From the IMG/VR virus record IMGVR_UViG_3300011268_000517, positions 22,558 through 86,557 of that record: a stretch of 64,000 bases of DNA. One strand, given 5' to 3'. A program made the translations under genes and the position numbers. The notes beneath the pieces were generated by a model. That model was not told the DNA's origin. It was given only the letters and a program-made list of their open reading frames with translations, and did not search any database. Of the stretch, positions 61,611 through 61,932 are shown piece by piece. The DNA comes from a virus. Every line of letters begins with the position of its first letter. The stretch's first letter is position 1.

Positions 61611-61648
61611 AACAAAAAACCCTCTGGACTTTCGTCTCAGAGGGTTTT
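61611..61648 (-). terminator. Intrinsic terminator of the putative attenuator
   Basis: AAAACCCTCTG-AGAC-GAAA-GTC-CAGAGGGTTTT-TTGTTT. Confidence 0.85.
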
Positions 61649-61677
61649 GGTAAGTAACCTTGATGGTATTCTAAGTC

Positions 61678-61797
61678 TTACTTGCCAAAACCCCCAGTAT
61701 CATATTCAATCGCAAATGATGGGCGTGTGCTTGTCCAGCCGTTATTTACTAACGGTAGTTGCTGCTTATGCATTCTGGATATACAAACGTTTTTCAT
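61678..61797 (-). CDS. 39-aa leader peptide containing all 20 amino acids (putative attenuator leader)
   Basis: Codon-by-codon translation MKNVCISRMHKQQLPLVNNGWTSTRPSFAIEYDTGGFGK*; last codons overlap an antiterminator strand; promoter TTGACG-N17-CATAAT at 61808-61836. Confidence 0.7.
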   Translation of the reverse strand: MKNVCISRMHKQQLPLVNNGWTSTRPSFAIEYDTGGFGK

Positions 61798-61807
61798 AGT
61801 AGAAAGA

Positions 61808-61932
61808 ATTATGTCCTAAAAGGTTGTTTTCGTCAAGTACTTTCTGCAGTAACCTTACAATCAGTAGGGTCTTTCCTGCAGCTAGTAATCTATTTATAAG
61901 GAATTATGGCTCAAAAGTGGGAAAAAGTCAAG
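61808..61932 (-). promoter_or_regulatory. Promoter cluster upstream of the leader (two sigma70-type, one late TATAAATA, one 23-bp palindrome)
   Basis: TTGACG-N17-CATAAT at 61808-61836; palindrome 61850-61872; TATAAATA 61891-61898; TTGACT..CATAAT ~61903-61931. Confidence 0.7.

Follow-up and report, generated by a model that had tools for sequence, protein, structure and literature searches.

The DNA considered here is a stretch of 64,000 nucleotides (the window), positions 22,558 to 86,557 of the IMG/VR virus record IMGVR_UViG_3300011268_000517, and forms part of a 95-kb viral contig that carries T4-type baseplate genes. On its minus strand, a short open reading frame (ORF) containing all 20 amino acids and an intrinsic terminator stand in front of a large array of transfer RNA (tRNA) genes. 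Several stem-loops and promoters around this leader unit resemble the promoter-early stem-loop (PeSL) cassettes of T4-like phages, in which a stem-loop is combined with an early promoter (PMC2839356, PMC4122927). In the order of transcription, the features are:

61903 to 61931, minus strand: P1, a sigma70-like promoter (TTGACT-17-CATAAT) upstream of the leader unit, kept in relatives.
61891 to 61898, minus strand: TATAAATA, a motif like the T4-type late promoter, directly after P1.
61853 to 61869, minus strand: stem-loop CCCTAC-N5-GTAAGG, 12-13 nucleotides (nt) before the -35 box of P2, with which it makes up a PeSL-like cassette.
61808 to 61836, minus strand: P2, a sigma70-like promoter (TTGACG-17-CATAAT), with a predicted start 2-4 nt before the ATG (near-leaderless mRNA).
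61678 to 61797, minus strand: leader ORF, 39 codons and TAA (61680-61678), all 20 amino acids in the translated sequence.
61739 to 61755, minus strand: small hairpin CCGTTA-GTAAA-TAACGG within codons 15-20 of the ORF, a possible pause hairpin.
61677 to 61695, minus strand: 5' arm of hairpin B (the antiterminator strand), made of a G-run, the last four codons and the stop, pairing with 61657-61640.
61640 to 61657, minus strand: 3' arm of hairpin B, whose last 5 nt (CCCUC, 61644-61640) double as the base of the terminator 5' arm.
61609 to 61644, minus strand: intrinsic terminator, with 7 base pairs, a bulged A, 3 base pairs and a GAAA loop (stem 61644-61620), then the U tract, UUUUUUGUUUU.
61587 to 61606, minus strand: second stem-loop, read in the sequence, then P3 (PeSL-like cassette).
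61545 to 61572, minus strand: P3, a sigma70-like promoter (TTGACT-16-TAGAAT).
61463 to 61491, minus strand: P4, a sigma70-like promoter (TTGACC-17-TATAAT).
51339 to 61378, minus strand: tRNA array, 32 tRNAs by ARAGORN for all 20 amino acids, the first being tRNA-Gln(ttg) at 61378-61305.

An initial annotation, made from the sequence alone, had described this region as a candidate attenuator that senses the whole pool of charged tRNAs, and most of its anatomical statements were confirmed on inspection. P2 lies at 61836-61808 and the ATG at 61797, 10 nt past the -10 box and without a Shine-Dalgarno (SD) sequence. The 39 codons encode the peptide given there, which reaches 20/20 amino acids by codon 33 and uses 33 distinct codons. 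The two arms of hairpin B (61695-61677 and 61657-61640) pair at 17 of 18 positions, with one C.A mismatch, and the final five pairs, GGGGG:CCCUC, draw on the terminator 5' arm. The strong terminator after the ORF (stem 61644-61620 and U tract), the two sigma70-like promoters past it (61572-61545 and 61491-61463) and TATAAATA at 61898-61891 are likewise present. The size of the array was overstated: 38 tRNAs were claimed, and ARAGORN gives 32, to which Rfam adds about three weak ones. In an Rfam E-value search of positions 50000-64000, only tRNAs and noise were returned over the leader, with no T-box and no other cis-regulatory RNA family. The ORF matched no Pfam family, and the terminator motif occurs once within the window and is not a repeated cassette.

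A random 39-residue peptide drawn with the amino-acid frequencies of the phage contains all 20 amino acids with a probability of about 0.005. The window holds 84 ORFs of 36-45 amino acids starting with ATG, and the leader is the only one among them with 20/20. The composition is improbable for any one ORF, but the single case is not significant among 84; since it lies within chance, significance rests on the family of related leaders. The number of distinct codons in the leader is marginally high (33 against 29.4 ± 1.8, P = 0.04), and its synonymous codons are rarer than those in phage genes (mean z -2.85, compared with -0.8 for gene starts). This preference for rare codons fits a deliberately sensitive ORF; other explanations exist.

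An exact 19-mer from the hairpin retrieved ten related contigs with 75-97% identity, all of which carry the ORF with 20/20 amino acids. Because selection on the peptide was to be avoided, the family was then defined by RNA motif alone. IMG/VR and JGI/ENA metagenomes were scanned for the 3' arm of hairpin B together with the 3' arm of the terminator, a two-part motif used in place of a single 14-mer, which was too unspecific. The scan gave 128 loci with a homologous ORF, which reduce to 63 nucleotide variants and 51 unique peptides of 36-45 amino acids. All 20 amino acids are present in 45 of the 51 peptides and 19 in the other six, and none falls below 19. Six residues are invariant in the family (L14, P15, W21, R25, E31 and D33). 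A profile search of a protein database added 43 further relatives, none named beyond 'hypothetical protein'. Ten more divergent relatives were inspected together with their DNA; eight have 20/20 amino acids, including one of 38 amino acids at only 40% identity, one lacks Cys, and the tenth is a shortened form of 33 amino acids with 17 types. The leader belongs to a set of T4-like phages from freshwater, all uncultured. When cultured phages were searched by nucleotide and by peptide sequence, no relative of the leader turned up, and the searchable full-text literature contained no description of such a leader. Synechococcus phage BUCT-ZZ01 (Kyanoviridae), the nearest cultured phage by one neighbouring protein, was set aside as a comparator, as the tRNA array is absent at the locus. 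A host scan of genome contigs gave chance matches and one mis-binned 2-kb contig, and nothing else.

The amino-acid sequence of the leader is weakly constrained, as judged by nonsynonymous-to-synonymous ratios (pooled pN/pS 0.63, dN/dS about 0.5-0.6; median pairwise dN 0.32 and dS 0.64), and its frame stays open across a tree of about 6.7 substitutions per site. Among the relatives the sequence thus drifts, yet the ORF and its diversity of 20 amino acids persist, in line with the initial annotation, where loss of either was named as evidence against the idea. The retention was compared with a tree-aware null in which alignment columns evolve independently along the family tree, each with its own observed residue frequencies and maximum-likelihood rate. 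The null was started from the window's own peptide and scored on the 50 other leaves, so it conditions on how the family was found. It expects about 11-16 of the 50 leaves to have 20/20 amino acids (11.3 ± 5.4, with a maximum of 34 in 5000 runs), and 44 of 50 were observed. With three different trees (flanks plus ORF; codons only; peptide) P was 0; with halved rates it was ≤ 5e-4, and with quartered rates 0.01-0.03.

The excess over the null arises because single-copy residues are replaced only once a copy has appeared elsewhere in the peptide. Tyr occurs exactly once in 51/51 peptides, yet it is spread across three alignment columns, which takes at least 4 changes. The sole copy of His uses 4 columns, that of Cys 5, that of Gln 4 and that of Val 8. 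Where K-Q-LPL changed to K-H-LPL, each time the upstream His became free to vary and a Gln arose at RPQF. The leader has no runs of regulatory codons, and the mean copy number is 1.0 for Trp, Tyr and Asp, 0.9 for Cys and 1.1 for His. From these comparisons, selection appears to hold every amino acid in the ORF at one codon or more, a constraint that is well supported and seemingly unprecedented.

The reading frame is intact in 128/128 loci, and lengths differ only by whole codons. Of 62 upstream contexts, 53 place the ATG 6, 7 or 10 nt downstream of a -10 box and have no SD, so that the mRNA would be leaderless or near-leaderless. The other nine have no adjacent promoter, and there the ATG stands 53-63 nt from the -10 box, behind a hairpin and an SD-like AAGGA(A); an SD-like AAGG or AGGA was found by scan in seven of these nine, and the remaining two read AAAGGAAG at that place. 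Start contexts thus fall into two mutually exclusive classes, leaderless or SD-like, and never neither. On this comparative evidence the leader ORF is taken to be translated. The TATAAATA motif, or CTAAATA, is found 50-100 nt upstream of the ORF in most relatives.

A non-coding element, either a small RNA or a PeSL-type terminator and promoter cassette in which the open frame is fortuitous, would agree with the strong structure of the leader RNA (z = -4.6), with the PeSL-like stem-loop and promoter cassettes on both flanks (PMC4122927) and with the fact that the 20/20 ORF of the single window is not significant alone. It is highly improbable, since it leaves unaccounted the frame kept in all 128 loci with only whole-codon length differences, the start that is always leaderless or provided with an SD, and the selection on composition. 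Moreover, the terminator is unique in the window rather than a repeated cassette, and no Rfam family is matched.

Both RNA helices are maintained by compensatory changes in the relatives, which agrees with the pairing proposed in the initial annotation. The terminator, a 10-base-pair GC-rich stem with a GAAA loop and a U tract between the ORF and the tRNA genes, has two stem pairs in which both sides are changed in 17 sequences each; hairpin B has one pair that reads GC in 27 sequences and AU in 22. The ORF always traverses the 5' arm of hairpin B although its C-terminal tail varies (K, KKM, KKK, KKKM, KQM or KKT), so the stop codon lies within the arm or directly behind it. At its base, hairpin B can be extended by 3-7 pairs into the terminator 5' arm. 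Three of these G:C pairs are invariant, and at the next G-run position U faces a purine throughout (A in 35 sequences, G in 21). GGU is preceded by GGG, GAG or AAG (Gly, Glu or Lys), such that the residue varies and the purine stays. Four relatives ascertained by their peptides have the terminator base CCCCG/CGGGG instead of CCCUC/GAGGG, and 4/4 have G, not A, at the G-run partner. These changes amount to a small three-way covariation, as expected of an antiterminator and terminator pair. RNAalifold did not recover a family-wide helix inside the ORF, whether a pause hairpin or a 1:2 pairing. In close relatives, the site of the in-ORF hairpin reads CCATTA/TAATGG and CAGCTAC/GTAGCTG, which is local covariation.

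In all loci that reach far enough, tRNA-Gln(ttg) and an array of 20-32 genes follow 42-445 nt downstream of the terminator, and no tRNA lies upstream; fully sampled arrays cover all 20 amino acids. The spacer between terminator and tRNA-Gln holds 0-3 cassettes of a stem-loop and a sigma70 promoter, of PeSL type, among the relatives. Seven intergenic variants have only 53-55 nt between the terminator and tRNA-Gln, with no sigma70-like promoter. In the relative L071, 1.6 kb and 11 tRNA genes separate the terminator from the next promoter-like site downstream on that strand. In L282 (positions 1201-1450) tRNA-His, rather than tRNA-Gln, begins within about 8 nt of the terminator U tract, and L282 and L287 likewise have no promoter after the terminator. 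In such promoter-less relatives, the first tRNAs can be transcribed only through the terminator, so that regulated, or at least substantial, read-through is necessary.

Two further features of the spacer were noted. The varying number of cassettes among close relatives looks like PeSL-type gain and loss in a stable-RNA operon. Directly before tRNA-Gln, nearly all relatives share a conserved sequence of about 25 nt (GTTCTTTAAAAATTTGGGAYTYTGT or ...TTTGCGTACC..., at about 61380-61440 in the window), which is kept with or without an upstream promoter and might serve as the 5' leader of a precursor or as a signal for processing.

The unit could instead be an independent micro-gene whose product is the 36-45-residue peptide. 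Synthesised early from a leaderless mRNA, the peptide would act in trans, for example to signal that full decoding capacity is present or in the role of a small regulator. The part of hairpin B and the terminator would then be to end and stabilise the mRNA and to insulate the promoter cassettes of the tRNAs, and read-through in promoter-less relatives would be constitutive leakage. In favour of this, the unit has a promoter of its own and ends in a strong terminator, most relatives have 1-3 strong promoters past that terminator, and six residues are invariant, as listed above. Asp and Glu also sit where an attenuator model cannot use them (see below), and a peptide serving as an AND gate, completed only when all 20 aminoacyl-tRNAs work, would explain the composition as well. 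We nevertheless regard this explanation as unlikely. The dN/dS values indicate weak constraint for a peptide that binds a target, and neither a Pfam family nor a named relative exists. RNA pairing accounts for the conserved C-terminal GFGK, the preceding codon can encode Gly, Glu or Lys but remains rich in purines, and the stop codon is confined to the hairpin B 5' arm or the position just after it. The promoter-less relatives with tRNAs directly behind the terminator are also left unexplained.

To model the effect of translation, the 63 variants were folded up to the terminator 3' arm with a 28-nt ribosome footprint masked; the resulting numbers are equilibrium values. With the A site on any of the last 8-10 codons or on the stop, the probability of the antiterminator is about 0 and the terminator forms in 63/63 variants, as the initial annotation had proposed for a ribosome reaching the stop. 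With the ribosome further upstream or absent, the extended hairpin B is favoured in most variants, and in many its probability stays at 0.7-1.0 for almost every upstream position; the response to upstream ribosomes differs between clades. Hairpin B should gain further from the order in which the RNA is made.

The same anatomy would serve an attenuator that reads the general state of translation instead of single tRNAs, through ribosome loading on the leaderless mRNA and the pace of the ribosome with RNA polymerase. It could respond to ribosome availability, to initiation factors, to host shut-off or to defences that inhibit translation, and the all-20 composition would have another cause. A leaderless start ties loading to the status of 70S ribosomes and initiation factors, single codons yield little amino-acid-specific gain, and the absence of any ribosome leads to the antiterminator in most variants, all of which suits this account. 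It fails to explain the supported retention and relocation of every amino acid, and we judge it unlikely.

The reading that we place at about an even chance is that a ribosome-dependent transcription attenuator with an 'omnivalent' leader heads the tRNA operon. In this mechanism, transcripts from P2 (leaderless) or from the upstream early and late promoters would start with the 36-45-codon ORF, the last codons of which form the 5' strand of the long hairpin B. The G-run at the base of hairpin B could pair with CCC(UC), the base of the terminator 5' arm. A ribosome finishing the ORF would cover the G-run and the 5' strand of hairpin B, so that the terminator folds fully and an RNA of about 190 nt results. 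A ribosome that is delayed, or stalled earlier for want of a charged tRNA, would let the extended hairpin B form first and hold the terminator base, giving read-through into the tRNA genes. Failed decoding of nearly any amino acid would thereby raise transcription of the array, and restored decoding would shut it down. Such negative feedback might also answer host defences that attack tRNAs.

Support for the attenuator geometry, and for selection on the presence of all 20 amino acids, comes from the ORF of the relatives, the covariation, the footprint folding and the promoter-less relatives. That the position of the ribosome controls termination, with tRNA shortage as the signal, we infer. A fuller version of the omnivalent attenuator is offered tentatively, as possible but short of probable. 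In it, a single leaderless mini-ORF reads the whole decoding capacity of the host and switches on the phage's complete 20-amino-acid tRNA set when any tRNA species is depleted by anticodon nucleases, other tRNA-cleaving defences or the phage's own host shut-off, and switches it off once phage tRNAs restore translation. Control by tRNA depletion or anticodon nucleases as such is purely conjectural. In our judgement, the system would be a variant of leader-peptide attenuation with a plausible mechanism.

Several observations weigh against the omnivalent attenuator. The stretch shared by antiterminator and terminator is only 3-7 nt long, the two states are nearly iso-energetic, and in the consensus fold the two helices coexist. 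The leader has one or a few copies of each amino acid and no runs, so the expected response to mild starvation is small. In the window's clade, the G-run also pairs upstream (CGCCCAUCAU, codons 25-28), and the terminator wins (0.77-0.86) unless the ribosome is at codons ~21-31. A ribosome at these codons covers the upstream partner, which in the folding model is a trp-like four-segment design. In most relatives, and in the window itself, 1-3 strong sigma70-like promoters separate the terminator from the tRNAs, and there attenuation could govern no more than part of the transcription of the array. The transcript evidence is one low-depth, near-identical contig of 177 nt from a freshwater metatranscriptome (61692-61868), which could be DNA carry-over. 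It has one difference from the window, giving the MKT... variant as in the relative L015, and it reaches from upstream of the P2 -35 box into the ORF, which would point to transcripts starting at P1 or the late motif, if the contig is RNA at all.

The composition of the leader raises further difficulties of the same kind. Asp (in 50/51 peptides), Glu (in 12-38 of 51, depending on the footprint edge) and Tyr (in 12/51) occur only within 3-4 codons before the G-run. A ribosome stalled there would mask the antiterminator itself, so the retention of these three is unexplained by sensing. Among the six peptides with 19/20 amino acids, four lack Cys (in two clades), one lacks Gln and one Val, and the distant relative L282 has a shortened leader of 33 amino acids with 17 amino-acid types. 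The amino acid that a leader lacks was not matched by a missing tRNA in the array behind it, in a set in which many arrays are cut off by contig ends; leaders without Cys precede arrays with tRNA-Cys. The leader codons also fit the phage tRNA anticodons no better than those of ordinary phage genes. The initial annotation had counted roughly one codon per isoacceptor of the array, and this part does not hold: 22/39 leader codons are Watson-Crick cognate to a phage tRNA, equal to the share in phage genes (0.557). Its pan-tRNA attenuator is accordingly upheld in the geometry and the all-20 selection, but not in the codon-isoacceptor matching, and under a simple model Asp, often Glu and sometimes Tyr could not be sensed.

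The closest parallels are the amino-acid attenuators of Enterobacteria (trpL, hisL, leuL, thrL, the multivalent ilvL, and pheL). These and the phage leader share a short translated ORF before an intrinsic terminator, an alternative hairpin that shares nucleotides with the terminator 5' arm, and a similar distance from the stop codon to the terminator stem (about 30-35 nt). In both, a ribosome at the end of the ORF favours termination and an earlier stall favours read-through, for the phage leader in the folding model. The window's clade further resembles the trp attenuator in having an upstream partner for the antiterminator strand. In contrast to the enterobacterial leaders, the phage leader has every amino acid in at least one copy in place of runs of regulatory codons, is encoded by a phage, controls tRNA genes rather than a biosynthetic operon and mostly has a leaderless start. 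Its untranslated default is read-through in most variants, not super-attenuation, and promoters often follow its terminator.

Parts of the decoding apparatus are regulated by the supply of charged tRNA, as proposed for the phage leader, in pheST (pheM), in thrS-type control and in T-box riboswitches. Unlike the phage leader, pheM senses one amino acid through Phe codons, and T-boxes bind uncharged tRNA directly and have no ORF. The ribosome-stalling attenuators of resistance genes (ARE-ABCF vmlR/lmo0919, bmrCD and the erm leaders) similarly detect stalling in a leader ORF coupled to a switch, which is either a terminator/antiterminator pair or the sequestering of an SD. They answer to drug-bound ribosomes at particular peptide motifs, whereas the phage leader has no arrest motif and is constrained in its composition. 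With PeSL cassettes, the locus shares flanking CCCTAC/GTAGGG stem-loops and sigma70-type early promoters; unlike PeSL repeats, the leader terminator is unique in the window, stands behind a conserved translated ORF and overlaps a covarying hairpin.

In T4, the tRNA gene cluster is accompanied by small stable RNAs (species 1 and 2), and to our knowledge no leader ORF or attenuator has been described for it. The present phage is likewise T4-like, with a tRNA cluster and, as predicted, an extra small RNA; the searches of cultured phages gave no sequence similarity. Phage tRNA arrays are now regarded as a means to withstand tRNA-cleaving defences and to offset codon mismatch with the host; little is known to us of how their expression is controlled. 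If the omnivalent attenuator is real, it would be the first to watch the whole aminoacyl-tRNA pool rather than one amino acid, and a rare case of selection on the composition of a peptide rather than its sequence. If it works in this way, it might also be turned into a small synthetic reporter for decoding capacity as a whole.

Upstream of the tRNA operon lies a set of genes for iron-sulfur (Fe-S) cluster assembly:

62768 to 63172, minus strand: NifU_N/IscU gene of the Fe-S cluster assembly set.
62494 to 62817 and 61949 to 62254, minus strand: two Fe-S_biosyn genes of IscA/HesB type, of the same set.
62251 to 62484, minus strand: acyl carrier protein gene, within the region of the set.

This phage-borne set occupies 61949-63172 on the minus strand, directly upstream of the tRNA operon. 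Next to it, the ORFs 63742-63431 and 63359-63177 (minus strand) resemble halves of one gene, with a frameshift near 63430-63450. The stretch 63177-63742 continues in another frame as ...HDHGGTLISCVYYISAPQNAGDLLLIDPRGG... and may reflect an assembly error or a pseudogene; relatives carry a 2OG-FeII_Oxy_5 gene at this position. The phage also encodes a transfer-messenger RNA at 27123-27506 (minus strand) with the tag ANDELFALAA, which the ARAGORN asterisk marks as the permuted form. Unusual tRNAs, all on the minus strand, are a 94-nt tRNA-Ile(tat) and the A34 tRNAs Thr(agt) and Ser(aga), at 57926-58019, 55114-55189 and 59260-59349, respectively.

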